From contig CAYPDT010000001.1 of NCBI GenBank assembly GCA_964409615.1, positions 435,880 to 499,879 on the forward strand: DNA of 64,000 nucleotides, written 5' to 3'. The position numbers were made by a program, and so were the translations under genes. The notes under the pieces are model-generated. The model was not told the DNA's origin. It made no database searches and saw nothing but the letters and a program-made list of their open reading frames with translations. Positions 610 to 17,000 of the stretch are shown in pieces. The DNA comes from an uncultured Candidatus Saccharibacteria bacterium (lineage in GTDB: Bacteria; Patescibacteriota; Saccharimonadia; Saccharimonadales; AWTP1-31). Within the stretch, counting starts at the first letter, position 1. Each line of letters begins with the position of its first letter.

Positions 610-1080
610 TTATTTTTGGATGCGAATACGTGAGACGGTAAGGTTGTTGCCTTTTTCGTCTTTATCGCCCGTAACAATTACTTTTTGGTCTTTCTTCAAT
701 GCTTTTGCGTCAGTCTGCTTACCATCACTACTGGTTACAATCGTATCTTTTGTAAAACTGGCCGTCTGCTCCTTACCTCGGGCATCCTTAACTTTGATAG
801 TCTTATCATTGACATCCGTAATTGTGCCAATAGAACTCCAGCGTCGTGAGGCGTTTCGATTCGCGGTCGAAGCAGATGAGAAAGAGCTACCGTTAGTCTT
901 AGAAGTCTTTTCACGATTTGCCCCGTTGCGGTCACCAAGTTTATAGATTCCGAATACCAGCAATACTGCCAGAAGAGCGATAATCATCTTGGTAGCGAGC
1001 CCAAGCGTTATGGTAAAAGTAACCTTTTTAGCTTTCTTTTCTTTTGGGGCACTTTTTTCTACAGGTTTGATGTCGTCCAT
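610..1080 (-). CDS. Hypothetical membrane-anchored protein (156 aa)
   Basis: ORF track. Lys-rich N-terminus, one TM helix (MIIALLAVLLVFGIY), then a Ser/Thr/Lys-rich beta-type ectodomain. No family recognised. Confidence 0.55.
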   Translation of the reverse strand: MDDIKPVEKSAPKEKKAKKVTFTITLGLATKMIIALLAVLLVFGIYKLGDRNGANREKTSKTNGSSFSSASTANRNASRRWSSIGTITDVNDKTIKVKDARGKEQTASFTKDTIVTSSDGKQTDAKALKKDQKVIVTGDKDEKGNNLTVSRIRIQK

Positions 1081-1228
1081 TTGTTGTTCTCCGTTAGATT
1101 ACTAAAGTCTTGTTCAATGACGCGGTGTAGTTGATAGATTGTCTCCATCTAATACTATTTACAGTACAACACCACCGTGAGTATCGCTATTGTTTTAATT
1201 ACTTGATTACAGCTATTGTTGTGGAGTG

Positions 1229-3916
1229 CTACAGAAGGTCTAAAAATTGCTCGAAGAACGACTTGTCGGGTGTTGCTGCATTGCTGGCCAGAGACACAGT
1301 AATCGTAGTTATTTTGGCATCTTTTATGGTCACCATCTGTTTGGCACTGGTACTATAAAATGCATTATTATTTATGGTTTTACGGTTTTTATCACTCACT
1401 TTGGTTAGAATTGCGTAAGCACTGCTTGCCGCATCAGCACTTTTAAATTCGCGAGTCGAGATAATAACCGAGGCAACTCCTTGTGGCTGTACACCATCGA
1501 CAATAAAGGCACAGGCAGACACCTGTCCCTCTTTGGTGACTGTAGTGGGGATACTAACCCGTGGACCGTTAGTCTTTTGCTTAAGAATTTGTTCTAATTT
1601 GGTTCGAGAAACCGTATCGCAGACCGCACTTTTAGCATCTTTTGGTATGGTAACCAATTGGTCCTCGACCGATGTATTGTCTTCGCTGCTATCGTAGATA
1701 ATTTTTCGTTCTGCTACAGGTTGAGCGGTACGGGTTAGCGCAAAGATTCCCCACCCGGCAGCGGCAACCATAACGATAGCCACTCCAACAAATACGCGCT
1801 TATTTACGTTTAATCTCGCAGCTCCATGGCTCCGGGACTTTTGTGTAGTCTTAGTGGAAAACTTCGAGTTCTTACGAAGATAGAAGATAGCTAAGAGTGC
1901 AACCAGGAGCGTAACACTAGGCACAACTATCCATACCGTCTGACCTGTTTGGGCAAGATTAGATGAACCACTTTGTCCACTACCATTACTATTACCTGGG
2001 TTATTAGGTACCGGCTTAATATATGAAGCACCGAGGATATTATTACTCGACCGCGCGAGCAGTATATCTATAACATCAGCGCCTTGGCTAAACAAGCGCG
2101 CATATGGAATAAAGTCTTGGTCGAGCGGTGAACCACCGGTAAAAACATAGTTGGTAAAGCTATCTGGGTTAGATGCAGTAGTGGTTGTGATGGTAGTCTT
2201 TATAACCTCACCTGATGCTAAAGAAGTTATTGGTCCGTCTGGATTATAACCACAAAGCAAAAAGGAATAATCAGAATGCTGATTAAACAAAGTACCTGCA
2301 ATGGCTGCAGAACCTGGGCCAGCCCACGTACAGTTCAAGTCTGGGTTTGACTGCGAAACATGCGTCAGATTAGGTGGCAGCAAATCAACAAACAAAGATG
2401 TCAAAAGTGGGTTAAAGCCTGATGCATCAAGTGTTCGTGGGTCCATACTAAATGGGCCAGCATTGGTAACCGTGATGGTGTAATTAAGCTGCGCACCGGC
2501 AGCGACATCTTGTGGGTTGTCTAGTGTCTTTGTTACCGCCACATCAGCTGGTTGGCTAAAGGCTTGTGCGTAGTTATTTACATCAGCATCTCTTGCACCA
2601 TCCAAAAGGTCACCACCACCATTAAAAATTTCACCTATCGTCTGTTGTTCTGGGTCACCAAAAATAACAGTAGTTAGTATCTTATTGTAAAACACCGGCG
2701 AAGCATCATCTACAACTGTAGCTACAATGACATAGCTAAGGCTTTCACCAGCATGCAAAGTTTTGCCAGAACCACTATAAGCACACGATAATATGCTGTA
2801 ATCACTGTGATTTGCGAAGACAGGGCCGAACATCGAGGCTGAACCAAGCCCACCGTAAAAACAAGCAATATCATCACCACTGACAGAGCTATACTCTAGC
2901 TGAGGCGGTAGAATGTCGTAGAATAATTCAGTTCCCTGCCCAGGAGTAGGGTCACTTACTTGCGACAAATCAAGTGCATCAGGCCCTTCGTTGCGAATGG
3001 TAACTTGGTAGTTTAGAGTATTACCTAGCGCAAAGTTTTCGGCATTTAGTAACTTCTTTTCAGCAACCAGGTCGGTAGTATATTGATGGCTATATAATGT
3101 TTGGTTATAGTTGTTGGTTTGACTGAAAGTTGAGGTAGTTATATCGTTTGAGCCAGCGAGTGCATCTTGGTAAGCGGCTGAATCTTCGTCTGTTATTGGG
3201 GTTGCACCTACCGTGAAAGTCGTCAGATTAGTGACCCGAGATTGCATGACAACAGCACTAAGAGTGTAGGCAACGCTCTGTTCAGCAGCCAGTAGGCTAG
3301 TCCCGCCAGTATGTGCGCACGTAACCACACTATAGTCGGTATGATTAGAAAACTTAGTTCCAAAGGCAACACTGCCAGCTGACCCAGCACCTAAATCGGT
3401 ACAAGTAATGGACGGGCCAGAAATAGCACTATAGGCAAATTCTGGTGGCAGCAGCACAGTGAACAAGAAGTCAGAATCAAAGTTCGAGCTGTTAAGTGTT
3501 GCTAGATCAAATGTGTCAGGGCCGTGATTAGTGGCAGTAATGGTATATTGCACCGTATCGCCCGCTACTAAGCCGACGTTACTGTTTTGCATAACGGTAT
3601 CAAACTGCAAGTCGGTTTTTGGGAGGTACGGCTGCCCCACTGTTCCAAACTCACTGGTAGAGCCGAAGCCACTAAAGGTTGCCGGTTCTAGTTCGGTGGC
3701 CGTGAGTGCAAGATTATTATGTGACGTTCCTGGCAAAGTAGCAGTAAATTCCTGCAGACCAGTTCCACTCGAAGTAACATCTACCTGCCCGATGTAGTTT
3801 TCGCCCTCGCCGGGGAAGTCTGGGTCGGCAACCGTATTGCTAAAGAATTCTATGCGGTAATCACCAGCTGGTACATCCATAGTAAAGGTAACATCAGTAT
3901 TACCAGCCTGTTCCAC
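1229..3916 (-). CDS. DUF11-type repeat surface protein with an internal LPXTG-like sorting signal, fused to a second TM-anchored domain (895 aa)
   Basis: Three ~175-aa repeats, each with a DUF11-like core (QYTITATNHGPDTFDL / NYQVTIRNEGPDALDL / NYTITVTNAGPFSMD) and an LLPPxL...C...NHSDYS...C pattern. LAQTG (1943-1957) is followed by a hydrophobic stretch and RKNSK. About 210 further residues follow, with another TM helix. GTG start, no signal peptide. Confidence 0.7.
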   Translation of the reverse strand: MEQAGNTDVTFTMDVPAGDYRIEFFSNTVADPDFPGEGENYIGQVDVTSSGTGLQEFTATLPGTSHNNLALTATELEPATFSGFGSTSEFGTVGQPYLPKTDLQFDTVMQNSNVGLVAGDTVQYTITATNHGPDTFDLATLNSSNFDSDFLFTVLLPPEFAYSAISGPSITCTDLGAGSAGSVAFGTKFSNHTDYSVVTCAHTGGTSLLAAEQSVAYTLSAVVMQSRVTNLTTFTVGATPITDEDSAAYQDALAGSNDITTSTFSQTNNYNQTLYSHQYTTDLVAEKKLLNAENFALGNTLNYQVTIRNEGPDALDLSQVSDPTPGQGTELFYDILPPQLEYSSVSGDDIACFYGGLGSASMFGPVFANHSDYSILSCAYSGSGKTLHAGESLSYVIVATVVDDASPVFYNKILTTVIFGDPEQQTIGEIFNGGGDLLDGARDADVNNYAQAFSQPADVAVTKTLDNPQDVAAGAQLNYTITVTNAGPFSMDPRTLDASGFNPLLTSLFVDLLPPNLTHVSQSNPDLNCTWAGPGSAAIAGTLFNQHSDYSFLLCGYNPDGPITSLASGEVIKTTITTTTASNPDSFTNYVFTGGSPLDQDFIPYARLFSQGADVIDILLARSSNNILGASYIKPVPNNPGNSNGSGQSGSSNLAQTGQTVWIVVPSVTLLVALLAIFYLRKNSKFSTKTTQKSRSHGAARLNVNKRVFVGVAIVMVAAAGWGIFALTRTAQPVAERKIIYDSSEDNTSVEDQLVTIPKDAKSAVCDTVSRTKLEQILKQKTNGPRVSIPTTVTKEGQVSACAFIVDGVQPQGVASVIISTREFKSADAASSAYAILTKVSDKNRKTINNNAFYSTSAKQMVTIKDAKITTITVSLASNAATPDKSFFEQFLDLL

Positions 3917-4764
3917 GATAGATGTGTAACCGTGCCAGATACACCACCGCCAGTCAGTCCAGTTCCAGCAATTACGCCGTTAATACCGCCCGCTGCACCC
4001 GTAACAGTTATCGTTCCGGTGTTTACGTCTGTAGATATGCTGACACTGCCCGAACCAACTATCGATGCGCTGCCGTTATTAGAAATGCCATTCAAACTAG
4101 ATAGAACTGTTGACTGTAGAGCACTGAGTGGAATTGTTTGACCAAGCCTAGTAACGCTACCGTCCAGTCGTTCGTTGCTGAGTGTGCCTTCGGTAATATT
4201 GCTGGCGTTGAGGTTAGTCAAAGCCGCACCACTGCCCTGAAAACTAGCAGCAGCTACGCCGCCAGAGATGTTAATGTTGCCCACTTGAGCAGGGCCACCA
4301 AGTACCGGGCTCAAGCTTACGGTATTACCCAAAATACTCGCTAGGTCGTTCAGGGCCTGGGCTGATAAATTAAGCTTACCTTGTACGGTTAAATCGCCGT
4401 TGATGGTGACCGTTTGATCGTTTAATGACTGAACCGGTAACAGGGTATCATCACCAAGGACAGGATTTTGCACGGTGTTGTAGGCGTCGATAGTGCTTTG
4501 GTTTTTGCTAGCATTCTTAACTTTGCCAGCAAGTCGTAATGCTGCGAGGCCAAGTCCGGATACAAAAAACATAACTACCAGCAGCAGAATTGCCTGCTTT
4601 TTCCAAGGTCGTGTTGGTCGACTTTTGATTTGTGTCAAGTTTAACTCAGGTTTTTGAGGTACATTAACAGAAGCAACATCAGCGTTAGCCGGTGCCTGCT
4701 GTAGGCTTTCTAAACCGGTTGTCTTTACTTGCTTATTCTGCAAGTCTAACTGCTTATTATTCAT
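3850..4764 (-). CDS. Truncated paralog of the giant fibre protein N-terminus (304 aa); probably the 5' half of a frameshifted chimera with 1229..3916
   Basis: Residues ~49-280 are identical to giant-protein residues ~42-273 (cytoplasmic tail, TM helix ILLLVVMFFVSGLGLAAL, first repeats). After the homology breakpoint (3924) only 24 unrelated codons precede the stop. It overlaps the start of 1229..3916 in another frame. Confidence 0.5.
   Translation of the reverse strand: MNNKQLDLQNKQVKTTGLESLQQAPANADVASVNVPQKPELNLTQIKSRPTRPWKKQAILLLVVMFFVSGLGLAALRLAGKVKNASKNQSTIDAYNTVQNPVLGDDTLLPVQSLNDQTVTINGDLTVQGKLNLSAQALNDLASILGNTVSLSPVLGGPAQVGNINISGGVAAASFQGSGAALTNLNASNITEGTLSNERLDGSVTRLGQTIPLSALQSTVLSSLNGISNNGSASIVGSGSVSISTDVNTGTITVTGAAGGINGVIAGTGLTGGGVSGTVTHLSWNRLVILMLPLLWMYQLVITA
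3924..4621 (-). repeat. 698-bp direct repeat, copy 1 (identical to 13157-13854, offset 9233)
   Basis: Aligned by eye at both boundaries. Translations are identical in three frames: the 304-aa versus giant ORFs, and + strand shadow ORFs 3922..4104 / 4138..4344 versus 13098..13337 / 13371..13577. Confidence 0.9.
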
Positions 4765-4806
4765 AACTCAGAATCGCCGCCAAAATCTTCTTTAATACTA
4801 TGTTCA

Positions 4807-4835
4807 ATTTTACGTGTTTTATAGAGGTAGCACAA
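4807..4835 (-). promoter_or_regulatory. Sigma-70-like promoter of the truncated paralog (TTGTGC-17-TAAAAT)
   Basis: -35 at 4830-4835 and -10 at 4807-4812 (minus-strand sense). Conserved in position with the giant-gene promoter. Confidence 0.55.
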
Positions 4836-4905
4836 GCGGAATGACCCCAGAAAAAAATATGCTCGATTTGCAACCATACAACATAGTGACCGACCAACAA
4901 TTTAG

Positions 4906-5604
4906 TTATTTTGCTAGGATAACAACTACTTCAGTGTCTTGGGGCTGTACCTCACCAGTTGGTAGGGTTGTCTGAATCTCAGCACCAATGACTTGTGCTA
5001 TCTTTTGTGTTTCGACAGCACGTTGCCCACCTGTTACATCTACCACAATATTTTTGGTATATGACGTTTTTTTAGCAGAATTTGCTGTATCAATTACACC
5101 GAGGTCTGTACCCAGGGCCTGATTTATCGACTTCTGGGCAGCCTCTAATCCGGCACTGCTAACGCCTGCATTCATCAAGGCTACTTTTACTTTGCCAGAT
5201 GTATTGATACTAAACGGGCCCTGATTGATTATCTTATTTTCAGAATCACGGTAGATAATTATCTTGCGCGCTTTAGAGTACACAACAAGGTAATCGCCGT
5301 TTTTTGCGTTTGTGAAGAATGGATCTTCACCTAGCTTTTCGCGGTCTGTAACGGCAGCAATTTGCGGTTGTTCGTCTTTTGGCAATTCCATAATCTTACC
5401 AAGTCGTGTTAGCAACTTTTTATTAGTTTCGTCAACTGCACTAGTTGGGTTATCTTTCAGGTTCTTGTACTGTGAGTAATAGAAAATACCAAAGCCAACC
5501 GCCCCGCCGACGACGATAAACAAGGCAACTCCGATAATCAGCTTCTTAACACTGATAAATCTTTCGGTTTTAAATACGGGGCGTTCCATGTTGTTCTCCT
5601 GCAT
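4906..5604 (-). CDS. Membrane-anchored LytR_C (LytR cell-envelope-related C-terminal) domain protein (232 aa)
   Basis: N-terminal TM helix (LIIGVALFIVVGGAVGFGIFYY). The C-terminal part, VKVALMNAGVSSAGLEAAQKSINQALG...NIVVDVTGG...VVVILAK, fits the LytR_C pattern. Its ATG overlaps the giant gene stop (TAATG at 5602-5606), which suggests translational coupling. Confidence 0.65.
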   Translation of the reverse strand: MQENNMERPVFKTERFISVKKLIIGVALFIVVGGAVGFGIFYYSQYKNLKDNPTSAVDETNKKLLTRLGKIMELPKDEQPQIAAVTDREKLGEDPFFTNAKNGDYLVVYSKARKIIIYRDSENKIINQGPFSINTSGKVKVALMNAGVSSAGLEAAQKSINQALGTDLGVIDTANSAKKTSYTKNIVVDVTGGQRAVETQKIAQVIGAEIQTTLPTGEVQPQDTEVVVILAK

Positions 5605-8600
5605 TAGGGTGATTGTTTAACCGACAAAGCAATCCAGTTAAAGTCGATATCTGCCGGTGCGTTGCTTGGCACGGTAATGTCAAAGCCGTCAGCCTGTACG
5701 TTTTTTACAGCGTAACCTGCAGCACTGTCTTTTGGACTTACTGTCACAATCGGTGCTTCAATATATGGTCGCGTGAAGCTAACATGCGCTGTTTTTGTCC
5801 CGGCTTTCATGGTTACTATACCAGCCAAGTCTTTATCAGCAAAGGTTACACGGCCGTCAAAAGCAACGTCGCTTCGGAAGGTCACCTTGTCTTTGAAGGT
5901 TACGAACGAATCAAAACTAACCAAGTTCTGGAATTCGGTTGTTTGGCCAACAATTCCGCCACTCCAAGCAGCTTGGCTGAGTTGCAAAACATCAACCCGT
6001 GCGGACAACCTATCAACTTTAGTATTAAGCTGTTGTACCGATTTAACAATCAACGGGGTAAGTCGCCCGTAGTCGACTGCCCAAGGATCAGTACTTGGGT
6101 CGCTACCACCAACCTTGACTGCATCAGGGAAAATTGCGTATAAGTCTTGAGCCAAGAAGCCTGTCTGGGTGCGATGGGTCGAATCAGTTATGAAGCTATA
6201 GTCGGCAACACTAATTTGCAACAAGTCATCTAGTGTGTAGCGCGTCTCGCTAATATTTTCTTTGAGTCGTTTATCAGATGTGGTGTTGTAGGTGGTAGTG
6301 TTGGCGGTTGTATCGATACTGATACTTCCTAAGTTATCTCCCGAACCGTCAGTGAAGGTAAATAGGTTTTGGGTGCCAGAAGTTTTGCCGGTTAGTACCG
6401 TCACGCCGTTTGTCCCAGTGGCTCCAACCTTGAGACTTATGTTAGTAGTTGTGGTAATGCCGCCAATGTTGATTGTCTTTGCAGCAGCACCAGTTCCGAA
6501 GTTGAGCGTCTGCGCACCGTTGCCGACGCCAATATCAATATTACCTGTCATGGCATTTGATGAACTGCCACCTAGTTCTAGCTTTCCACTGCTCAAGTTG
6601 GGTGCCAGACTTATTTGTGCCGTACTTGTATTACCGCCCAGCACAACGTTTCCTGTGGATTGTAGATATAGCCCGGCTCCACCAAAACTAAAAGTACCTC
6701 CATACGAACCACCGGTTGTGATATTAACTGCACCGGTTGAGGTGAGCGAAGTGCCACCAGTACCGGAGTTGGTAGCGAGTGAAGTATTACCGCTTGAGTT
6801 ACCGATACTGATGTACTGTTGCCAGCCATTTAGTCCGATTTGCATCAAACAACTATTACAAGCGTTCATGTATATTGAGCCACCGTCGACTGAATAGTAG
6901 TTGCCCGCCCGCACCAAGACGGTACTGCTGCTGGTATTGCCTATGGTAATGGCGTTTGCTACAGCACCAGTTCCGATATTGATGGTTTTGCCACCAATGC
7001 CACCAGTTCCGATATTGATGGTTAGCGTGCCGGTACCAGTTGAAATATTCATGGTGCCACTCTCACCGCTAGTACTACCGAGCGAAACTGCTCCTGTAGT
7101 TGTGTCTATGGCAAAAATCGGGATACCTGTTGCGTTATTAATCCTGAAAGCATCGACAGAATTAGATTGATTCTGGAAGGTAGTTGGAGAGTTAATAACA
7201 CCGTTAAAGTTAATACTGCCGAGGTTAAAGAGTGTTGCTGCACTTGAAATCTCAAGCTGCGCAGCATCGACAAAGAATGTTCGAGCAGTTGCGTCAGTTT
7301 GTCGGTAATATACATATCTTGTGCCAGAGACTGATGCACTGGTAACGAACGTACAAGTGTATCTAGTCCAACCGGTCGTAGATACAGTCTGTCCCGTTAG
7401 ACAGCTTGTATTAGTCGAGCCGTCGTTAGTGTAGCCCATTTGGAAGGTAGAGAAATTCGACCCAGAAGCCCTGGCATACACCGAAAAGCTATATTGCGTA
7501 TTAGCAGCCAGTGCAAACGTCGCAAATGCCCCAGCATTTGCAGAGGCCGTAGTTACATTTGAAAGACTACCATTGCCTGAGTATTGATCTGTAGTGGTTC
7601 GGGATATTGTGTCGCCTGTAAAAGCTGTCCAGCCATTGATATTAACATCGAAACTTGGATTCGTGAGGAGGTTGGCATTGTTTTGCCTAACAGTAAATAC
7701 ATTATTAGATGTATTACCCCCCTGAACTTGGAATATGTCGGCAGTTTGTGCGGCAGCACCTTTTATCTGTGCTTGTACAGCAGCAGCCGCACTTCCTGTA
7801 ACCTTGAAGGCTGGGAAAGAATCACTTGAACCAGAGTTAACAACTTCTACAGTATTGCCGGCAGTCGCCTCGAGCTGCAAAACATTCGCATTATTAGAAA
7901 TCTTGTTGTTAGAAATTGTTAGTGCCCGATTACTGCTGTTGAAGATATTCAATGCACCGGTACTAGTGGTATCGAAAGTCAACTGTGGTGTTCCAGTAGC
8001 ATTTTGGATCTGGAAAGCAGATGTGGAGTTCGACTGATTCCGGAAAGTTGCAGGACTATTAATGGTGCCGTTCAGACTAATATTTCCAAGAGAATAGTTA
8101 GTAGGCGTGCTTCCTGTTTCAAGCTGAAAAGCATCTAAGTAAAATGTTCTGGCGGTTGCGTCTGTCTGACGTACATACAAAGATGGTGTGCCGCCCCAAC
8201 TGCCTGGCGTAGTAAACGTACAGCTGATACGATTCCAACCCGTTGTGACTGCCTGCGCCGTAGCGCAAGAAGTGTATGTACTCCCAACCACATATCCTGC
8301 TTCCAATGTACTAAATGCTGAGGCCCCTTTGGCGTAGAACGAGAATGTATAGGTCGTACTTGTCGCTAAAGAGTATGACTGCCGAACGCCGTCTCCGGTG
8401 GCTGCTGTCGGACCAACAGCTAGCCCCGCCGGGCCAGAGTACGTTTCTGCTGTTGTCCTGGCAAAAGAAGTAGAGTTAAGGTTTGTCCATCCCGTTGTAT
8501 TCGTATCAAAAGATGGATTGACAATTAGGTTAGAATTGTTCTGCGAAACCGAAAGAATATTATTAACCGTATTACCACCCTTTACCTGTAATATGTCTGT

Positions 8601-11600
8601 GGTTTGGACTCCACTAAAACCTTGGACCATCAAGCCTACCTTGTTGGCATCTTGAGTAAACTGTTGGATAGCCACTACATTAGAAGTACCCGAATTGACG
8701 GCGAAGACATTGCCATAGCCCCCAGATCCAACACTCAAGGTTCCCGTACTGCCCGGGCCAAGTTGCAAACTAGCTGCCCCCAGGTATGAATTCGCACCAG
8801 CACCGCCCGTGATATTAGCCGAGGTACATGGCCCAACACACAGCACTCCAGTACTGGTATTAAAACTCATTTGATCAGCCCCAGCCGCATTCTGAATACT
8901 GAGGGCACGTTGTGAATCTGTCGCATTACGCAAACGCAACGAACTAGAGATAACACCATTAAGATCAATTTGTCCAGGCTGATATTCGGTAGCAACTGAT
9001 CCCAATTCCAACTGGACACCATCAATGTACATAGGGCCAGAATGTCGAATATAGAGGTATGTGCTCCCTGAAACTGTTCCGGTAGTAAAAGTACAGGTCA
9101 TGCGACTCCAAGTATTGGCCGGGATATTCCAGTTATGATTGTTACAGTCAGTGTTTGTCGACCCATTTTCTGATCTACCCGTATAGGCATTGGTCCAGCC
9201 GGCGGTATACCGTCCGTAGTACGAAAGCGTATATGTAGTATTAGAGGCAAGAGCGTACGTGTACTTAACCCCATCACTAGCAGTTGTACCGCTAAACGAA
9301 AGTGCGCCATCGCCTACAAAGGTAGGGCTCGTAATTTGAGAAAAAGTGCTAGAACCCAGTGCTGTCCAGCCAGAAGTATCAGTATCAAAACCAGAATTGT
9401 CTATCAGGTTGGGAGTAACTTGATTAACAGAGAATATTGGAGTTGCTTGCGCAGTCCCATCCTTTACCTGCAAAATATCGGCGGTCTGCGCCCCAGCACC
9501 TTGGATAACTGCTGTAACGTTTGCAGCGTTTGCCGATTGGATATTCATATTAGCAGTTTGGGTAGTGGTTTGGTTCTTAATTACGTTATTTGCAGATGAA
9601 GATACAGTACAGCCAGTACTGTCACACACCTGGTTACCTCCAACCCTCAGGGCAGTAGTTGAGTTAATATCACCAGCTACATCGAGAGTATAGCTTGCGG
9701 TGGCCTTACCGATGGCGACACGGTTGTTATATGTGTCGGCAACGAACAGATTGCTCGTTCCGGCATTATTCTGAATTTGGAAAGCTGTGGTCGTGTCTGA
9801 TTGATTCCTGAACACTGCTGGGCTAGTGAACATACCTGAGAAACTTAATGTAGCTTCTTGATATGGAGTTAGCGTCGAACCAATTTCAATCTGCATCGCA
9901 TCTACGAAGAAAACTCGTGAAATAGCATCGGTCTGCCTATAGTACACGTTACGAACAACACTTGCGGGTGTAGTAAAAGTACATGTATAGCGCTGCCACA
10001 CAGCAGAAGAGACGGTCTGCCCTGTTAGACAACTGGTGAATGTTGTATTGTCGGTATACCCCATCTCGAAGGTTGAGAAGCTTGACCCAGAGGCTTTGGC
10101 GTACACCGAAAGAGTGTATGTAGTATTCAACGCAAGGTTAGTCCATATCTGGCGAACCCCATCATTTGCTGCTGCTGTGGTGGCAATTCTAAGACTACCA
10201 ATCCCAGCATACTGCTCTGCTGTACTCCGTGTGAGGGTAGCAGAACCCAATGCACTAACGCCACCGGTTCCTGTATCAAAGTTCGAGACTGTGCCAAAGA
10301 GGTTTGTTCCGGCTGATGGATTGACGATTAATGGTGTGGCATTCTGCGTAGTATCTCCTACAGTAAGGCTACCGCCGTTGTATACGTTGCTATTGGCGTA
10401 TTGAGAGAAAGCTCCGCCCCCAGACACGGTAAGTGCACTCGCTGCAGCTGCAGTAACGCTCATACTACCAACGGACGATAGAGCAAAGCCATTAGAGACT
10501 GTAGCGCCGCCATTCCCAGTATTACTGAGGCTAAATATGTTAGTGCCCGTTGCATTTTGTAATGAAAATGCAGTGTTTGAATTTGATTGTGTACGAATGA
10601 CTACCGGCGAGTTTACCACCCCGTTCAATGCAATTGTCCCTTGTTGAAATGCAGTAGTAGTGGTTCCTGGCTCTACCTGCACGGCATCTACATAAAAACT
10701 TCGCGCTGTGGCATCGGTTTGGCGAATGCCTATAAAGCGCGTGCCAGAAACGGATGCACTAGTAGTGAAGGAACATGTATAGCGTGTCCACCCACCAACT
10801 AATACAACCTGATTGTTAACACAGTTAGATTGCGTTGTGCCGTCATTTGTAAAGGTAATCTGCATGCTACCCCACTGAGTGGTATTTACCCGTGAGTAGA
10901 AAGAAACAGCATATGATGTACTTGCGGCAAACTGATAATTATATCTGGCGCCATCGTTAGCTGCTGCTGTAGTTGTAACGAGCAGCGAGCCCAATCCAAT
11001 ATATTGGTCGGTAGTCGAACGTGCGATTGAAGCATTACCAAGAGCTGACCACCCAGAGGTATCGACATCGAAACTTGGGTTAGTTATGATGTTTGTCGTA
11101 TTCTGACTAACCCCTAGTAGTGTTGAGCCGCCACCAGAAGTAACTTGCAAGATGTCTGCTACCTGGGCGGTCGACCCCTGAATGGTTGCCGTAACACTGT
11201 TAGCATCAGCCGATTTGATGTTCATGTTAGCAGTCTGGGTGGAGGTGCCATTTTGGATGTAGTTGTTACTACCGCTACCTATAGCGTAGCCACAATTATT
11301 GCTAGTGTCGCAAACTTGGTTTGAGCCCTGATAGATTGCCCCTGTACTGGTTATCTTGGCAACAACATCGTTATTTTGGTCGCGGGCTTGCAATAAGTCT
11401 GCTGTCTGACCAGTCGCTCCCTGCACTACAGCGACCACACTACTGCTACTGGCTGATTGAATATTCAGGTTTGCCGTCTGTGTAGTAAGGCCGTTTTGGA
11501 TGTAGTTGTTGCTGCCTGAACTTGGAGCACAAGTTGCTGTTGGGCCACAAATAGCTACTCCATTAATGCGGAAACTATTGCCCGCCGCGATGTTAATATC

Positions 11601-13976
11601 TCCGTTAACATCCAACGTATAGCCAGCCGTTGCTTGGCCAATGGCAATACGAGTGTTGGTTGTGTCGGCAACAAACAAGTTGCTAGCAGCGGCATTTTGA
11701 ATCTGGAAGGCAGTGGTTGAATCGGTAGCGTTTTTAAAGAGGTTAGCAGCACTAAATGTTTGAGCACCGTTCAGCTTTGCAATATTACTGTCGTTACTCA
11801 AATTAGCACTGCTGATCTGAGTGCCATTAACTTGGAATTGGCCCGTAGTGCTAATGTTGCCGCTGGCGTCAATCTTGGCAATTACGTTGTTGCTGGCATC
11901 TGTAGCTTGGAGCAAGTTAGCAGTCTGGCTTGTTTTTGCCTTGAGTACAACTGTTGGACTGGTGGTAGCTGTCGATTCAATGTTAAAGTTGGCACCCGTC
12001 TGAAGTGAGGTACCGTTTTGGATGTAGAAATTAGCCCCTGCACTTGCTGCACAACCACTGGCATCACAAACCAAGTTACCGCCTACCCGTAAGCCAGTAG
12101 CAGAGTTAATATCTCCGTTAACATCCAATGTATAACCAGCTGTTGCTTGGCCAATGGCAACCCGAGTGTTAGTGCTGTCTACCGTGAATACGTTGGTTGA
12201 ACCCGCGGCATTCTGTACGCGAAATGCAGTGGTTGAATCTGCGCCTGCTTTGTATAATCCACTAGCTCCAATTGTCACTAAGCTGCCGGTATCGCTAATC
12301 GAGCTATCGCCTATCGATTGACTGCCGGTAAATTTAGCCAGTTTGTTAGTGTTTCCACCAAGCGTTGTAACACCACCACCAGCGCTTGCACAGTTACCAA
12401 CAGTAGTACAGAGCGTATAGGTTCCGGGGGAGGTAGCGGCATCGAGATTGTAAATTACATTTCCGGTGGGTGTTCCGGTAAAACCGAGGCTCACCGTACC
12501 CGAACCACTGGTAGCAGTCAGCTTAGTAGTCAGGTCACCCTGCAGCGTCAGCGACTGATTAGTAGCACCGATGACCATCGAAGCTGATGGTTGAATAACG
12601 TTTACAGTCAGCGGTTGAGAAAAGACCACATTGCCAGTGAATGTTTGGTTAGCATTCAATAGGGCAACGTTGGCGCTTAATCGCCCGTCGGCTAAGGTAC
12701 CAGCACTGATATTGCTGGCGTTGAGGTTGGTTAAAGCCGCACCGCTGAGGGCTGGTAGATTACCGCTGTTATCAAGTTTTACTAACTTGTTAGCTAGGTT
12801 GAAAGTATTGCCCTGCAATGTAACGTTTGCCCCCAAACGCGCATCGGCTAAGGTACCAGCACCGATATTGCTGGCGTTGAGGTTGGTTAAGTTTGTTGCG
12901 CTGATTACGGGCAGCTCACCCGCGCCATTAAGCTTGACCAGTTGGTTGGTACCGTTAAAGGTGTTGCCTTGCATGGTGACGTTAGCACTCAAACGACTGT
13001 CACTAACAGTGCCACTACTGATATTGCTGGCGTTGAGGTTGGTTAAGTTTGTTGCGCTGATTACGGGTAGTTCGCCTGCGCCATTAAGCTTGACCAGTTG
13101 GTTGGTACCGTTAAAGGTGTTGCCTTGCATGGTGACAACGCCACTATCTACATCGAGTGTAACCGTGCCAGATACACCACCGCCAGTCAGTCCAGTTCCA
13201 GCAATTACGCCGTTAATACCGCCCGCTGCACCCGTAACAGTTATCGTTCCGGTGTTTACGTCTGTAGATATGCTGACACTGCCCGAACCAACTATCGATG
13301 CGCTGCCGTTATTAGAAATGCCATTCAAACTAGATAGAACTGTTGACTGTAGAGCACTGAGTGGAATTGTTTGACCAAGCCTAGTAACGCTACCGTCCAG
13401 TCGTTCGTTGCTGAGTGTGCCTTCGGTAATATTGCTGGCGTTGAGGTTAGTCAAAGCCGCACCACTGCCCTGAAAACTAGCAGCAGCTACGCCGCCAGAG
13501 ATGTTAATGTTGCCCACTTGAGCAGGGCCACCAAGTACCGGGCTCAAGCTTACGGTATTACCCAAAATACTCGCTAGGTCGTTCAGGGCCTGGGCTGATA
13601 AATTAAGCTTACCTTGTACGGTTAAATCGCCGTTGATGGTGACCGTTTGATCGTTTAATGACTGAACCGGTAACAGGGTATCATCACCAAGGACAGGATT
13701 TTGCACGGTGTTGTAGGCGTCGATAGTGCTTTGGTTTTTGCTAGCATTCTTAACTTTGCCAGCAAGTCGTAATGCTGCGAGGCCAAGTCCGGATACAAAA
13801 AACATAACTACCAGCAGCAGAATTGCCTGCTTTTTCCAAGGTCGTGTTGGTCGATTTTGAGAAATTTTGGGTGACGAAGTAGAAGCAGCACGCTCATTAG
13901 CCGGTGCTTGTTCTAAGCTCTCTAAACCGGTTGATTTGACTTGCTCATTTTGCAAGCCTGCCTGTTTGTTATTCAT
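5604..13976 (-). CDS. Giant membrane-anchored tail-fibre-like surface protein with C-terminal Peptidase_S74 intramolecular-chaperone domain (2,790 aa)
   Basis: Short cytoplasmic tail plus one TM helix. Three 52-aa tandem repeats. Recurring fibre segments (TAFQIQNAAG..LFVADT.NTR.AIGQATAGYTLDVNGDIN). Five CBM4/9-like modules (NPSFD..T.GW ... W.RYTCTFTT ... F.VDA.Q.E). C-terminal SDKRLKENISETRYTLDDLL...TGFLAQDLYAIFPDAV...VDYGRLTPLIVKSVQQL matches the Peptidase_S74 (endosialidase chaperone) consensus. Confidence 0.9.
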   Translation of the reverse strand: MNNKQAGLQNEQVKSTGLESLEQAPANERAASTSSPKISQNRPTRPWKKQAILLLVVMFFVSGLGLAALRLAGKVKNASKNQSTIDAYNTVQNPVLGDDTLLPVQSLNDQTVTINGDLTVQGKLNLSAQALNDLASILGNTVSLSPVLGGPAQVGNINISGGVAAASFQGSGAALTNLNASNITEGTLSNERLDGSVTRLGQTIPLSALQSTVLSSLNGISNNGSASIVGSGSVSISTDVNTGTITVTGAAGGINGVIAGTGLTGGGVSGTVTLDVDSGVVTMQGNTFNGTNQLVKLNGAGELPVISATNLTNLNASNISSGTVSDSRLSANVTMQGNTFNGTNQLVKLNGAGELPVISATNLTNLNASNIGAGTLADARLGANVTLQGNTFNLANKLVKLDNSGNLPALSGAALTNLNASNISAGTLADGRLSANVALLNANQTFTGNVVFSQPLTVNVIQPSASMVIGATNQSLTLQGDLTTKLTATSGSGTVSLGFTGTPTGNVIYNLDAATSPGTYTLCTTVGNCASAGGGVTTLGGNTNKLAKFTGSQSIGDSSISDTGSLVTIGASGLYKAGADSTTAFRVQNAAGSTNVFTVDSTNTRVAIGQATAGYTLDVNGDINSATGLRVGGNLVCDASGCAASAGANFYIQNGTSLQTGANFNIESTATTSPTVVLKAKTSQTANLLQATDASNNVIAKIDASGNISTTGQFQVNGTQISSANLSNDSNIAKLNGAQTFSAANLFKNATDSTTAFQIQNAAASNLFVADTTNTRIAIGQATAGYTLDVNGDINIAAGNSFRINGVAICGPTATCAPSSGSNNYIQNGLTTQTANLNIQSASSSSVVAVVQGATGQTADLLQARDQNNDVVAKITSTGAIYQGSNQVCDTSNNCGYAIGSGSNNYIQNGTSTQTANMNIKSADANSVTATIQGSTAQVADILQVTSGGGSTLLGVSQNTTNIITNPSFDVDTSGWSALGNASIARSTTDQYIGLGSLLVTTTAAANDGARYNYQFAASTSYAVSFYSRVNTTQWGSMQITFTNDGTTQSNCVNNQVVLVGGWTRYTCSFTTSASVSGTRFIGIRQTDATARSFYVDAVQVEPGTTTTAFQQGTIALNGVVNSPVVIRTQSNSNTAFSLQNATGTNIFSLSNTGNGGATVSNGFALSSVGSMSVTAAAASALTVSGGGAFSQYANSNVYNGGSLTVGDTTQNATPLIVNPSAGTNLFGTVSNFDTGTGGVSALGSATLTRSTAEQYAGIGSLRIATTAAANDGVRQIWTNLALNTTYTLSVYAKASGSSFSTFEMGYTDNTTFTSCLTGQTVSSAVWQRYTCTFTTPASVVRNVYYRQTDAISRVFFVDAMQIEIGSTLTPYQEATLSFSGMFTSPAVFRNQSDTTTAFQIQNNAGTSNLFVADTYNNRVAIGKATASYTLDVAGDINSTTALRVGGNQVCDSTGCTVSSSANNVIKNQTTTQTANMNIQSANAANVTAVIQGAGAQTADILQVKDGTAQATPIFSVNQVTPNLIDNSGFDTDTSGWTALGSSTFSQITSPTFVGDGALSFSGTTASDGVKYTYALASNTTYTLSYYGRYTAGWTNAYTGRSENGSTNTDCNNHNWNIPANTWSRMTCTFTTGTVSGSTYLYIRHSGPMYIDGVQLELGSVATEYQPGQIDLNGVISSSLRLRNATDSQRALSIQNAAGADQMSFNTSTGVLCVGPCTSANITGGAGANSYLGAASLQLGPGSTGTLSVGSGGYGNVFAVNSGTSNVVAIQQFTQDANKVGLMVQGFSGVQTTDILQVKGGNTVNNILSVSQNNSNLIVNPSFDTNTTGWTNLNSTSFARTTAETYSGPAGLAVGPTAATGDGVRQSYSLATSTTYTFSFYAKGASAFSTLEAGYVVGSTYTSCATAQAVTTGWNRISCTFTTPGSWGGTPSLYVRQTDATARTFYLDAFQLETGSTPTNYSLGNISLNGTINSPATFRNQSNSTSAFQIQNATGTPQLTFDTTSTGALNIFNSSNRALTISNNKISNNANVLQLEATAGNTVEVVNSGSSDSFPAFKVTGSAAAAVQAQIKGAAAQTADIFQVQGGNTSNNVFTVRQNNANLLTNPSFDVNINGWTAFTGDTISRTTTDQYSGNGSLSNVTTASANAGAFATFALAANTQYSFSVYARASGSNFSTFQMGYTNDGSTNTSCLTGQTVSTTGWTRYTCTFVTSASVSGTRYVYYRQTDATARTFFVDAAQLEISSAATLFNLGSINFNGVINSPTTFQNQSNSVDAFRINNATGIPIFAIDTTTGAVSLGSTSGESGTMNISTGTGTLTINIGTGGIGGKTINIGTGAVANAITIGNTSSSTVLVRAGNYYSVDGGSIYMNACNSCLMQIGLNGWQQYISIGNSSGNTSLATNSGTGGTSLTSTGAVNITTGGSYGGTFSFGGAGLYLQSTGNVVLGGNTSTAQISLAPNLSSGKLELGGSSSNAMTGNIDIGVGNGAQTLNFGTGAAAKTINIGGITTTTNISLKVGATGTNGVTVLTGKTSGTQNLFTFTDGSGDNLGSISIDTTANTTTYNTTSDKRLKENISETRYTLDDLLQISVADYSFITDSTHRTQTGFLAQDLYAIFPDAVKVGGSDPSTDPWAVDYGRLTPLIVKSVQQLNTKVDRLSARVDVLQLSQAAWSGGIVGQTTEFQNLVSFDSFVTFKDKVTFRSDVAFDGRVTFADKDLAGIVTMKAGTKTAHVSFTRPYIEAPIVTVSPKDSAAGYAVKNVQADGFDITVPSNAPADIDFNWIALSVKQSP
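7238..11093 (-). repeat. Five ~290-aa super-repeats (fibre segment plus CBM4/9-like module) within the giant gene
   Basis: The module-start Asn codons of N(P/S/F).FD lie at 11079-81, 10281-83, 9396-98, 8517-19 and 7659-61 (aa 966, 1232, 1527, 1820, 2106). Confidence 0.8.
12663..13130 (-). repeat. Three tandem 156-bp (52-aa) coding repeats in the giant gene
   Basis: Units 12975-13130 and 12819-12974 are near-identical (MQGNTFNGTNQLVKLNGAGELPVISATNLTNLNASNI..GT..D.RL.ANVT). The third unit, 12663-12818, is diverged. Confidence 0.85.
13157..13854 (-). repeat. 698-bp direct repeat, copy 2 (5' coding module of the giant fibre gene)
   Basis: See copy 1. The upstream flanks (13855-~14060 versus 4622-~4850) are homologous but diverged. 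The downstream flanks are unrelated. Confidence 0.9.
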
Positions 13977-14018
13977 GATGCAAAATCGCTATCAATTTCC
14001 TCTTATTTCTTATGTTTA

Positions 14019-14047
14019 ATTTTACGTGATTTTTAGAGGTAATACAA
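14019..14047 (-). promoter_or_regulatory. Sigma-70-like promoter of the giant fibre gene (TTGTAT-17-TAAAAT)
   Basis: -35 at 14042-14047 and -10 at 14019-14024, located in the 120-bp gap after the kinase gene. Confidence 0.55.
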
Positions 14048-14096
14048 GCAGCATTCCCCGTAGCACAGGTTGTTAGTATTCGGCTATTTGAGTTTG

Positions 14097-17000
14097 CTAA
14101 ATGCTAGCGTTAGCAGTGATGGGTGCAACGAGTAATGGCGCAAGCTTTTTACTCTTTTGCAGTGCTGGCAAGCGTACTGTTACAGTGGTGCCGTTCTTAC
14201 TGCTGCGCACCTCTAGTCGTCCGCCTAACTTCTCGGCAATAATTCTGTTGATATGAAGGCTCAGTCCAAGCCCCTCATAGTTAAATGTCTCGGTACTGGT
14301 GGCACGATAAAATGGTTCAGATAAATGGGCCAGGTGGTCTGGATCAATACCGGTTCCATTATCTATCACCCGCAGATTCACCCAGTTACCCGCCTGTTGG
14401 GCAGAGATAGTCACTCGCCCACCAGGCTTACTAAACATGATGGAGTTGTCTGTCAACGATTCAATGATTTGTGCCAGCTCTTGGGGCTGAATAGCAACGC
14501 GTAAGCTAGCCGGTACGTCTAGCTGTAACTGTACCTGCTTTTCGGCCGCCTTGGCCTGCAGTTTACTGATGGCTCGAGGCACCTCTTGGCCAAGATTCAG
14601 CTCGGGTGAATCAACTGTTTTGGCTGAGTATAAACGTACTTTTTGCAAACTCTCTACCATTTGACCTAGAGCATGTAGACCGTTAAAGAACGTTCTTGTT
14701 TCGGGAATCGCGTGTAACTCTTGGGATATGATAGTGATATTTTCATAATGTCCTGCCAATGTTTCTGCTGCTCGTGACATAAAAGCGTTCCGTTCTTCTA
14801 TCAATTTCTGCTGAGAAATGATGGCACTTCGTGCAATCTCTTGCGAAGCACGCTGAACATCTTTGTACTTCTGAAAACCTACAAGCAATACTGCAAACAG
14901 CACTAAGCAAATCACCTGCAAAGCTGTTTGTACCGATGCAAGCACGTACACGTTTGTCAGACCAAACAGAAGCGTCACAAGCGCGAACAAACTGCCAGCA
15001 ACCACAATTGGTAGCCACACAGCTTTTTGCATAAGCGGGCTCGTGTCACCCCCACCACTCCATGCTGTAGAGCTAGTGACAACTGGGCTCGACAACTCAA
15101 GCTGACTCTGCGAGGCTAGCTGATGAACATCTTGGCCATACTTTTTTAATGCCGTTTCTAGCCGTTGCGTTGCCCAATCGGGAAGTTTTTTTAGCGATAC
15201 AAGCAACTCTAGCGCTCCACTCATAATTGCCACAGGCGTATTTAGGTAGTGATTCGTGATTGATACATACGAATCTGTTGCTTGTTTTATGGTCTTCATG
15301 TGTTCTAATTGCTCTTGTAGCTGGCGGCGGACAAGATATTCTTTGTACCCCCGGCGCCCGTACAACAATGCCAAAAATAGCAGTACTAGCAAAATAAACC
15401 ACGAGATAGCCCGGGCAATCGGTTCAACTATAAATGGCTTTTTAACGACTGCTTTTGTCTTGGGAAGTTCAGTAATACTGCCCACTGGCCGACGTTGGAG
15501 TAGTTGTTGATTTTGTTGTTGCTGCAGAGGCTGAGGCTCCTGATTGCCGCTCGCTACTGGCTGATTTTGAGTCATGTTGGGAACAGGCCGGGTTGGCACT
15601 CGTGGTGGAGGCATTGTGCTATTGGTCCCAGTAGAGCCCCCACTAGGAGCAGTTGGGTCTGGTGGGTTAGTGGTCTCGGTGCCAAGCACTACTTGCACGT
15701 TTACCTGTACTCGCCCCGCTACGAAGCCCTTAAAGTTAAGAAATCCTGAATTTGCATTCAATAGTGACGACGAGAACACAAAACCAATAGTGCCTATCTC
15801 GAGGATACTCTCAATGGAGTTAGTGGTCGAGTTATATATCCCCCAGTTGCCATCACCTTGTCTAAAAGTGTATTTACCGGGTGATTCCTGCAGTGGGGCT
15901 ATCTCCCGTACAATACCTGGGAATTCTTTTGATGACAGTGCATTGCCTGTCGTAGTATCGAACCGTTGCAACAGGTTACTACTGCCTGACACCATGAAAG
16001 CAATTGTGCCGTCTTGCGTAATACCAACCGTGTTATCGCCACTGCCATTCGATATATTTTTGGCAAACGTTACGTCCCGATTCACCGTCCAATCGTTTGT
16101 GTTTATCACCTTCATATCACCCACGGCACCACTGATCGCCGGTGAAAGATACAGCTTCTGCTGATCGGCACGGTAGTCGGCAGTGACTCTCGAGTAGTAG
16201 CGAGAAGTCACTGGATACGTACCAAGAAGTGTATAGCTATGGGCATCGAATATCTGGTAAGTATCAACATAGAAGTCTCCGTCCGATGGATTTCCTTGAT
16301 ATTCTCCACCATACACAATAAAGAAATCATTAGAAGGAGCGTCGACTGCTAACATCTTTTTGCTAGTGTTAAGTCGAGTAATCTGCCCTGTTGTAGTGTC
16401 AAAGATATCGACAGCCGAATCTAATCCAGTTGGGATGTAGATTTTCGTGCGGTCCGGAGATTGCGCTATCTTCTTCATCACATTGCCAGTCGTAATATTG
16501 AAGGGGCCGTTTGTGTCGAGGTCATAGGTTGTGGTCTGCATGGTAGTCAGATTTAACTCGGTGTACTTGTTGGCGGTACTAGTGTTTATAAAATATGTCT
16601 TTAGACCGTCAGCAGAGGTGAACACCGAGCAGTTCTCAAAAACATCCATGCCGATCGTTGCCGAGCCAGTGGTTTGTTTGGTGACAAGATCATACTTGTA
16701 TAATGTCAGACCGGCCTGAGAATACGAGTCCATGCTAAAGGTAAGGGCAACATTGCCATCTGGCGAGAGATACTGCGGAATACGCCCGTCGAAATCAATG
16801 TCGTCGTGAATTTCTACCTGGTTTTGTGCAAAGTTATAAAACTGATATCCGGTAACATTAAACTCTTCGCCCAAATAAGCAATAGGAAAGCCCGTCGAAT
16901 CAGCGCTGGCCTGTGCTGTTATGGTTGCTGCACCTGGTGTTAAACCGGTCAGTTGGTACGTCCAGTTATTGTTCTGGTCGGCAACCGCTGCCCCCTTCTG

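Follow-up and report, generated by a model that had tools for sequence, protein, structure and literature searches.

A second copy of a giant fibre gene 5' module in a Saccharibacteria genome is probably an out-of-frame recombination scar

A 64,000-nucleotide (nt) stretch of DNA from an uncultured Candidatus Saccharibacteria bacterium (GenBank assembly GCA_964409615.1, contig CAYPDT010000001.1, positions 435,880 to 499,879; hereafter the window) carries two copies of the 5' module of a giant fibre gene, the second of which lies upstream of an open reading frame (ORF) encoding DUF11 repeats. We conclude that this second copy is probably an out-of-frame recombination scar consisting of two gene fragments, whose module half still exchanges sequence with the giant gene, and that the locus is accordingly better regarded as a pseudogene than as a switch. 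All genes under discussion are encoded on the minus strand, and the elements on which the argument turns are the following.

3924 to 4621, minus strand: relic copy of the fibre 5' module, with an RPTRPWKK motif, a transmembrane anchor and ~230 stalk-base residues; hydrophobic peak at residues 57-80
13157 to 13854, minus strand: copy of the module in the giant gene, where it forms the native 5' portion of the 2790-amino-acid (aa) fibre gene; the related species L016 shares the junction between the module and the remaining gene
4622 to 4850, minus strand: relic-specific 5' flank, with a promoter-like TTGTGC-17-TAAAAT, an untranslated region (UTR), the first 48 codons and a 21-nt insertion; 65-71% identical to the flank of the giant gene
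3850 to 4764, minus strand: 304-aa ORF, made up of the relic N-terminus, the module and 24 out-of-frame codons from DUF11 DNA; 249 aa with a TGA end in 11 other assemblies
3924 to 3931, minus strand: recombination joint with the 8-nt microhomology GGTTACAC, read (G)GT TAC AC (V-T) in the fibre frame and GGT TAC AC(A) (G-Y-T) in the DUF11 frame
1229 to 3916, minus strand: 5'-truncated gene of a DUF11-family surface protein, an 895-codon ORF with a GTG start at 3916, lacking signal peptide and beta-helix
5604 to 13976, minus strand: giant fibre gene, 2790 aa, with a membrane anchor at the N-terminus, a Peptidase_S74 chaperone domain at the C-terminus, tail-fibre-like repeats and five CBM_4_9 domains

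RESULTS AND DISCUSSION

The repeat and its flanks

Base-by-base comparison showed that positions 3924-4621 equal positions 13157-13854 at 698 of 698 nt, at an offset of 9233, and that identity breaks off sharply at both ends. There are two copies, and no third, within the 64-kb window. Upstream of the repeat, homology persists at an offset of 9212, being shifted by a 21-nt indel, and the relic and giant flanks share 65% identity over the promoter and UTR and 71% over the first 48 codons (alternatively, 75% over 179 nt). Promoter-like hexamers were found at 4835-4807 for the relic (TTGTGC-17-TAAAAT) and at 14047-14019 for the giant gene (TTGTAT-17-TAAAAT), and the same elements are conserved in L016. 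The downstream flanks of the two copies show no relationship. An identical tract bordered by a homologous but diverged flank (65-71%, 21-nt indel) is a feature of gene conversion. These results bear out a first-pass annotation of this DNA as to the exact repeat and its offset, the spacing of both pairs of hexamers and the unrelated downstream flanks; its description of the upstream flanks as diverged also stands, but its figure of about 80% was too high.

A microhomology joint that explains the frame offset

The 304-aa ORF matches the giant protein as far as ...GTVT and then runs through 24 unrelated codons to the stop at 3850, as had been noted before. The frame of the DUF11 ORF is shifted by -1 relative to it. 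Matches to PF01345 (E=1.8e-12) and TIGR01451 (E=7.6e-12) identify the DUF11 repeats, and no hydrophobic segment is present in the first 100 residues (Kyte-Doolittle maximum, 0.45), which agrees with the earlier description of an ORF that opens at GTG 3916 in the -1 frame and has no signal peptide.

When the DUF11 frame was compared with its relatives by tblastn, homology was found to start at 3931, within the repeat, and not at GTG 3916. Across the joint this frame reads GYTSIVEQAGNTD, the equivalent in the relative P0004 being PGYTSIVEDAGDTE; at the protein level, H-G-Y-T-S-I-V-E-Q-A-G-N-T-D stands against the conserved ...P-G-Y-T-S-I-V-E-D-A-G-D-T-E of the relatives, whose PGYT codons are CCT GGT TAC ACT in P0006 and CCT GGT TAT ACG in P0004. 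The giant gene reads GGC ACG GTT ACA CTC at the same point, the joint falling after the first base of the last codon. The string GGTTACAC (3931-3924) is thus the last 8 nt of the repeat; it is present in the giant copy, and for the DUF11 parent it is implied by the GGT TAC AC(T) of the relatives. Both parents are traceable right up to the joint, the fibre frame ending in ...GTVT as in the giant gene and L016 and the DUF11 frame reading as in the relatives.

The 8-nt string is therefore common to both parents but is read in different phases, and this is why the two ORFs are one nucleotide out of frame although no base is missing. A crossover placed in microhomology irrespective of frame argues for illegitimate recombination and not for an indel. 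Since the 5' part of one gene has been joined to the 3' part of a co-oriented gene downstream, the simplest event would be a deletion.

The DUF11 ORF is a 5'-truncated remnant

Full-length DUF11 relatives in public data are 1150-1350 aa long and have ~466 additional N-terminal residues; the beginning of the 895-aa ORF (residue 1-2) aligns to residue ~467-470 of relatives of 1171-1347 aa. In P0002 and P0004 the N-terminal part consists of a signal peptide and a right-handed beta-helix (PF13229, Beta_helix, at about residues 286-443 in P0002), and no remnant of either was found anywhere in the 64-kb window. The relatives are beta-helix/DUF11 surface proteins of the LPXTG type, some of which are named "CSLREA domain-containing" by JGI. 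Directly upstream of the full-length gene in L007, L009-L011 and L028 there is a CotH (CotH-LTD) gene and never a fibre module, whereas in the window the relic module occupies the place of the CotH gene. Taken together, the alignment start, the absent signal peptide and beta-helix and the CotH-preceded full-length relatives indicated that the window gene is a 5'-truncated remnant of a surface-protein gene.

Two further arguments on the remnant were considered and set aside. The lack of a Shine-Dalgarno motif before GTG 3916 says little about translation, the motif being present in just 15 of the 46 window ORFs, and an 841-aa variant of the remnant (P0272), at first taken as a sign of decay, comes from a chimeric contig end. 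The JGI contig in question, L029, is chimeric at both ends, with a duplicated 55 nt (1-55) and ~100 nt of unrelated GC-rich sequence (9248-9347) that gave rise to the false P0272.

At the other end of the DUF11 ORF, the C-terminal ~160 residues (1229-1720) are homologous (58%) to the product of a separate ~205-aa gene that lies 3' of the DUF11 gene in L009-L011. The homologue of this gene is fused in frame in both the window ORF and P0002, and the fusion places an LPXTG-like LAQTG motif and a transmembrane segment in mid-ORF (residues ~655-730), with a second transmembrane segment after them. In L008 (5185-5853) a sortase gene is located between the DUF11 gene and a homologue of the 156-aa gene of the window (610-1080; 54% identity); the counterpart of this interval in the window (1081-1228) comprises just 148 nt, without a sortase. 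The region 3696-8946 of L028 encodes a 981-aa DUF11 paralogue (P0023) with a CotH gene of its own upstream. The source genome probably keeps an intact copy of a DUF11-type surface protein elsewhere.

The joint is conserved in 13 assemblies, and most carry a stop codon before it

Through look-ups of exact proteins and through the members of protein clusters we reached 12 further assemblies of the locus from different samples, of which six are from Logan (SRR23702460, SRR23702459, SRR12350679, SRR12350678, SRR30654310 and SRR10132661), five from JGI (3300045347, 3300045350, 3300045353, 3300045354 and 3300045356) and one from ENA (ERZ15185725). The joint is identical in all 12, or 13 of 13 with the window, and shows no length variation. 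A joint common to independent assemblies cannot be put down to faulty assembly or to an indel introduced in sequencing, and the GYTSIVE of the window matches the PGYTSIVE of the relatives straight across it; the indel artefact that the first-pass annotation had offered as one explanation can thus be dismissed. These data indicated that the scar is fixed in the species-level population.

In 11 of the 12 other assemblies, substitutions at 4023 and 4017 convert VNTG into VYT-TGA, so that the ORF stops after 249 aa, 36 codons short of the joint. With a TGA upstream of the joint, no fusion could arise in those strains by read-through, frameshifting or an indel at the joint. The possibility that TGA is recoded as glycine (code 25, the nonsense allele being GGA->TGA) was examined and rejected, as 6 of the 46 ORFs end in TGA and neither the 2790-codon nor the 1695-codon gene contains it in frame; the organism thus uses TGA as a true stop codon. 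The C-terminus of the relic ORF differs among strains, at 249, 297 or 304 aa.

Other searches added no strains. Exact-pattern scans of JGI metagenome contigs for the mid-module and for the window-type giant module joint gave no match, in a collection that evidently does not hold the JGI samples reached via clusters. A scan of genome contigs yielded no genome of the same species, the only relative being one at 75% amino-acid identity with one module copy, and a protein search with residues 286-900 of the giant protein retrieved no near-identical protein and no further window-type giant alleles.

As a separate observation, the relic ORF (4015-4764, compared among the near-clonal strains of L001-L029) has a density of single-nucleotide polymorphisms (SNPs) ~6-fold that of the neighbouring ~3.6 kb. 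The SNPs are at 4733, 4696, 4691, 4314 and 4179, and three of the five alter the protein; so few sites are involved that caution is needed, and errors of assembly may account for some of them.

Probable exchange of sequence between the module half and the giant gene

Two intervals, both visible when the window is set against the other assemblies, bear on the history of the module.

4017 to 4119, minus strand: tract private to the window genome; 14 synonymous sites (4060-4119) differ in 12 of 12 others, and 4017 and 4023 in 11; minimal gene-conversion tract
11400 to 14600, minus strand: allelic block at the 5' end of the giant gene, compared with L023/L025; core (12400-14000) 60-75% identical, shoulders 87-97%, ~100% outside

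The 14 sites in 4060-4119 are all synonymous and mostly 3 nt apart. Since all other relics carry the alternative patch, either the window relic has been overwritten from the giant copy over at least 103 nt (4017-4119), or a repeat has been collapsed in assembly. Overwriting of this tract would also erase the nonsense codon, and for this tract parsimony favours giant to relic as the direction.

The JGI contigs L023 and L025 cover the whole locus, in the order ~1700-aa gene, 2792-aa giant gene, 232-aa gene, relic and DUF11 remnant. Over 2022-11400 and past 14600 they are ~100% identical to the window. In the two module parts flanking the private tract, however, identity between their giant module and the relic is as low as 65% and 59%, and there is no repeat. 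A perfect repeat is thus not something that the locus has in all strains. A different 5' allele of 2-3 kb in otherwise ~100% identical strains points to imported DNA at a hypervariable end of the surface gene. The suggestion of the first-pass annotation that a perfect core in diverged flanks reflects recent gene conversion or recombination fits these comparisons well, given that the 12 other relics differ at 14-16 clustered sites and the sister giant modules are 59-65% identical to the relic.

A third arrangement was seen in L005, a short contig from a strain diverged by ~1%, in which a giant-type 5' flank is joined to a relic-type module followed by the DUF11 fragment. This is exactly the order predicted for a deletion between the repeats, and it encodes a 297-aa ORF (P0048). 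L005 may be a true deletion product, a pre-insertion ancestor or a path chimera of the de Bruijn graph. The 9.2-kb deletion foreseen in the first-pass annotation thus finds a matching arrangement, but one that could be such a chimera. Because L005 and the window share a giant flank with a relic-type module, parsimony suggests that the two-copy state with near-identical modules is probably the older one and that the L023/L025 allele was imported.

A model for the origin of the scar

From these comparisons we propose that a single event of illegitimate recombination at a microhomology fused two genes of the same orientation, the simplest such event being a deletion. The start of a fibre gene, with its promoter, N-terminal tail, membrane anchor and stalk-base module, would have been attached at codon ~466 of a surface-protein gene whose original product would have had a signal peptide, a beta-helix and DUF11 repeats as well as an LPXTG-like motif. 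With the crossover inside GGTTACAC, read in different phases by the two parents, the product would have been out of frame from the outset, leaving a promoter-bearing stub, which could specify at most an anchored peptide of 249-304 aa, and a signal-less remnant of 895 codons; neither fragment is likely to be functional. The relic module would have remained homologous to the 5' module of the giant gene, permitting sequence exchange between them. In the window genome the module allele of the giant gene matches the relic, and a short giant-to-relic conversion (at least 4017-4119) would have erased the 14 synonymous differences and the nonsense codon, producing 698 identical bases. The direct repeats may also recombine with each other and delete the 9.2 kb between them. 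Among the four explanations listed in the first-pass annotation, a decaying chimera is the one that the data support.

Several observations weigh against this account. The undeleted parent, namely an intact second fibre gene directly upstream of a full-length DUF11 gene, was not found in relatives, L016 being readable only to 11 kb of the giant gene; with the parent arrangement seen in no relative, it is the joint that suggests a deletion. The remnant is still an uninterrupted 895-codon ORF, both SNPs seen in it (in L005) are synonymous, and its presumed loss of function follows only from the lack of an export signal. Beyond the private tract, identity is 100% between the giant module of the window and the relic of strains that have a very different giant module of their own, and the divergence of the flanks (65-71%) calls for either paralogy of long standing or a swap of alleles. 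An old tandem duplication that later underwent conversion, or an exchange of alleles at a hypervariable N-terminal tail, would explain a relic flank so diverged beside an intact 895-codon ORF. Finally, identity over 4017-4119 is perfect in this one assembly alone, with at most 16 of the 698 positions at stake.

Alternative explanations

The last point raises the question of whether the perfect identity is a product of assembly, the joint itself being real, with a collapsed repeat, bubble popping or a strain-chimeric contig having copied giant sequence into both places; the true relic of the strain would then have the same 14-16 differences as the relics of all the other assemblies. The relic version of 4017-4119 is unique to the window among 13 assemblies, and the window is otherwise ~100% identical to L023/L025 over 9 kb; moreover, the 5' part of the module has 497 nt of true identity, which exceeds typical assembly k-mers, and the ending of several contigs near window 9212-9230 makes it clear that strain mixtures are present in the samples. 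However, the source assembly appears to be of high quality, and 14 differences in 60 nt suffice to place reads uniquely. We regard such an artefact as unlikely, and even if it were true, just 16 of 698 positions would change, and the repeat, the joint and the pseudogene interpretation would be unaffected. It is quite improbable, in our view, that the stub is a working gene for a short membrane-anchored protein of 249-304 aa expressed from the conserved promoter. The promoter hexamers are indeed shared by both copies and by more than one species, other Saccharibacteria have short proteins with this module, among them a natural protein of 382 aa in L012 (P0071) that combines it with the same anchor, and all 14 module differences from the relics of other assemblies are synonymous; yet the C-terminus is free to vary (249, 297 or 304 aa) and is built of out-of-frame DUF11 codons, SNPs are ~6-fold denser than in neighbouring DNA of near-clonal strains, with three of five altering the protein, and a synonymous pattern can come from a functional giant allele via conversion. 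Still more doubtful is the idea that the relic is kept as a silent homology partner, which would donate its module after replacement of the 5' allele by a foreign one and serve as a direct-repeat arm for an irreversible "fibre-off" loss of the giant fibre and the 232-aa gene. It draws on the fact that most of the giant module of the window equals, base for base, the relic found in strains where giant module and relic are only 59-65% identical, and L005 shows the "fibre-off" arrangement.

The first-pass annotation also envisaged an indel- or frameshift-dependent switch. An anchored DUF11 fusion of ~1,170 aa would then be made if ribosomes shifted by -1, or if 1 nt were reversibly gained or lost, near 3916-3982. 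The arithmetic of the fusion is correct; the 304-aa ORF and the DUF11 ORF have 67 nt (3850-3916) in common, and upstream of its GTG the DUF11 frame stays open for another 21 codons, to 3979. Against such a switch, 3982-3850 contains neither a slippery heptamer (X XXY YYZ) nor a short tandem repeat, and its longest homopolymer is 3. A programmed frameshift is thus left without its heptamer and, in 11 of 12 other assemblies, with an upstream ORF cut by the TGA at codon 250 before the overlap is reached; slipped-strand phase variation is left without a repeat tract, at a joint that is identical and of invariant length in 13 assemblies. The microhomology, for its part, fully accounts for the frame offset, and we find a switch of this kind barely credible. 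The same annotation had considered a cassette system in which alternative passengers share one 5' module, but relatives have independent, signal-peptide-bearing, full-length DUF11 genes behind CotH and without a module copy, the very arrangement that it had itself named as a refutation. A related proposal is that the DUF11 fragment is a stored C-terminal portion, like the orphan fragments of Rhs/CDI systems, which become active once they have recombined with a main gene (Koskiniemi et al. 2014, PMC3967940), so that recombination between the modules would delete 9.2 kb and put the fragment behind the promoter and export module of the giant gene. The order of main gene, homology stretch and fragment lacking start and export signals does resemble that of Salmonella rhs (PMC3967940), recombination would likewise delete the interval, and L005 has the predicted recombinant order of giant-type flank, module and DUF11 fragment. 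Here, however, the fragment and the homology stretch are in different frames, a recombinant would encode just the truncated 297-aa ORF P0048 and no fusion, and in 11 assemblies there is a stop codon within the homology stretch. The cut falls inside a structural protein, right after the beta-helix and not at a conserved module boundary, no toxin/immunity pair is present, and the DUF11 gene of relatives is full-length. As the in-frame relationship that defines Rhs/CDI is absent (-1 shift; 297 aa in L005), the resemblance is superficial, and we hold an orphan cassette to be highly improbable.

Comparison with known systems

The recombination scar has closer counterparts in two ordinary processes. 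Gene conversion, or concerted evolution, between paralogous bacterial gene segments is exemplified by tufA/tufB. In both cases an identical tract lies in diverged homologous sequence and differs between close strains, and the unconverted patch here differs at synonymous sites only. Unlike in such pairs, one partner is a truncated, out-of-frame relic whose homology simply stops at the joint on one side, and the 5' end of the expressed partner is swapped among strains as a 2-3-kb allele. With fused pseudogenes formed through microhomology, the locus shares the joining of unrelated coding sequences at a shared string, here of 8 nt, with frame ignored and intervening DNA lost; it differs in that no parent arrangement is seen in relatives and in that the scar is unusually conserved (13 of 13), with one side still being overwritten by conversion. 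Silent-cassette antigenic variation, as at Neisseria pilE/pilS and Borrelia vlsE, also involves a non-expressed partial copy that exchanges sequence by conversion with an expressed surface-protein gene. In the window, by contrast, there is a single copy and no array, the shared part is the conserved anchor module and not the variable exposed region, and the best-supported transfer runs from the expressed gene to the relic. What the locus does display is the signature of gene conversion between paralogous segments, together with that of a recombination joint formed at a microhomology.

In annotation, the 304-aa and 883/895-aa ORFs should therefore be treated as fragments of a fused pseudogene, and not as two hypothetical proteins or a frameshifted gene. 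The locus also presents the 5' end of a giant surface-protein gene in an episymbiotic Saccharibacteria lineage as a recombination hot spot, with 2-3-kb allele replacement between near-clonal strains, conversion with the relic, a nearby insertion of an insertion sequence (IS) and possibly deletion of the whole gene. It provides a worked example of surface-gene diversification, one that involves no new mechanism and is ordinary in kind, but is documented across 13 assemblies.

Neighbouring genes and other observations

The locus is chromosomal and lies beside the ATP synthase operon. A search of the window against Rfam gave no match, and neither did exact look-ups of the 304-aa and 1695-aa proteins. 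Between the giant gene and the relic there is one further gene.

4906 to 5604, minus strand: 232-aa gene with no family assignment, inside the 9.2-kb unit bounded by the repeats

Its product has no LytR_C, Pfam or NCBIfam match even at E<=5, so that the LytR_C label given to it in the first-pass annotation cannot be maintained. It is weakly similar to the product of a 123-aa gene 3' of the short fibre gene P0071 in L012.

The giant gene directly follows a conserved ~1700-aa gene, and a fibre gene is found in the same place in L012 and in L016, the latter having one module copy. The ~1700-aa protein has a C-terminal HATPase_c domain and is encoded at 14097-19184 in the window, 4926-9986 in L012, 4745-9874 in L016 and 14219-19321 in L009; in L009 its gene adjoins the CotH-DUF11 gene pair.

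In the giant gene, 20 nt beyond the downstream end of its repeat copy, begin three tandem units. These 156-nt units (window 12697-13136), 70-94% identical to one another, encode TMQGNTFNG...LTNLNASNI; they would fragment short-read assemblies at the 5' end of the giant gene. In L006 (ENA ERZ15185725), an IS1595-family transposase gene and a GH31 gene (1534-2334) abut the locus inside the 232-aa gene, with a breakpoint at window ~5449, and ~71 nt are absent around window 5041-5123.

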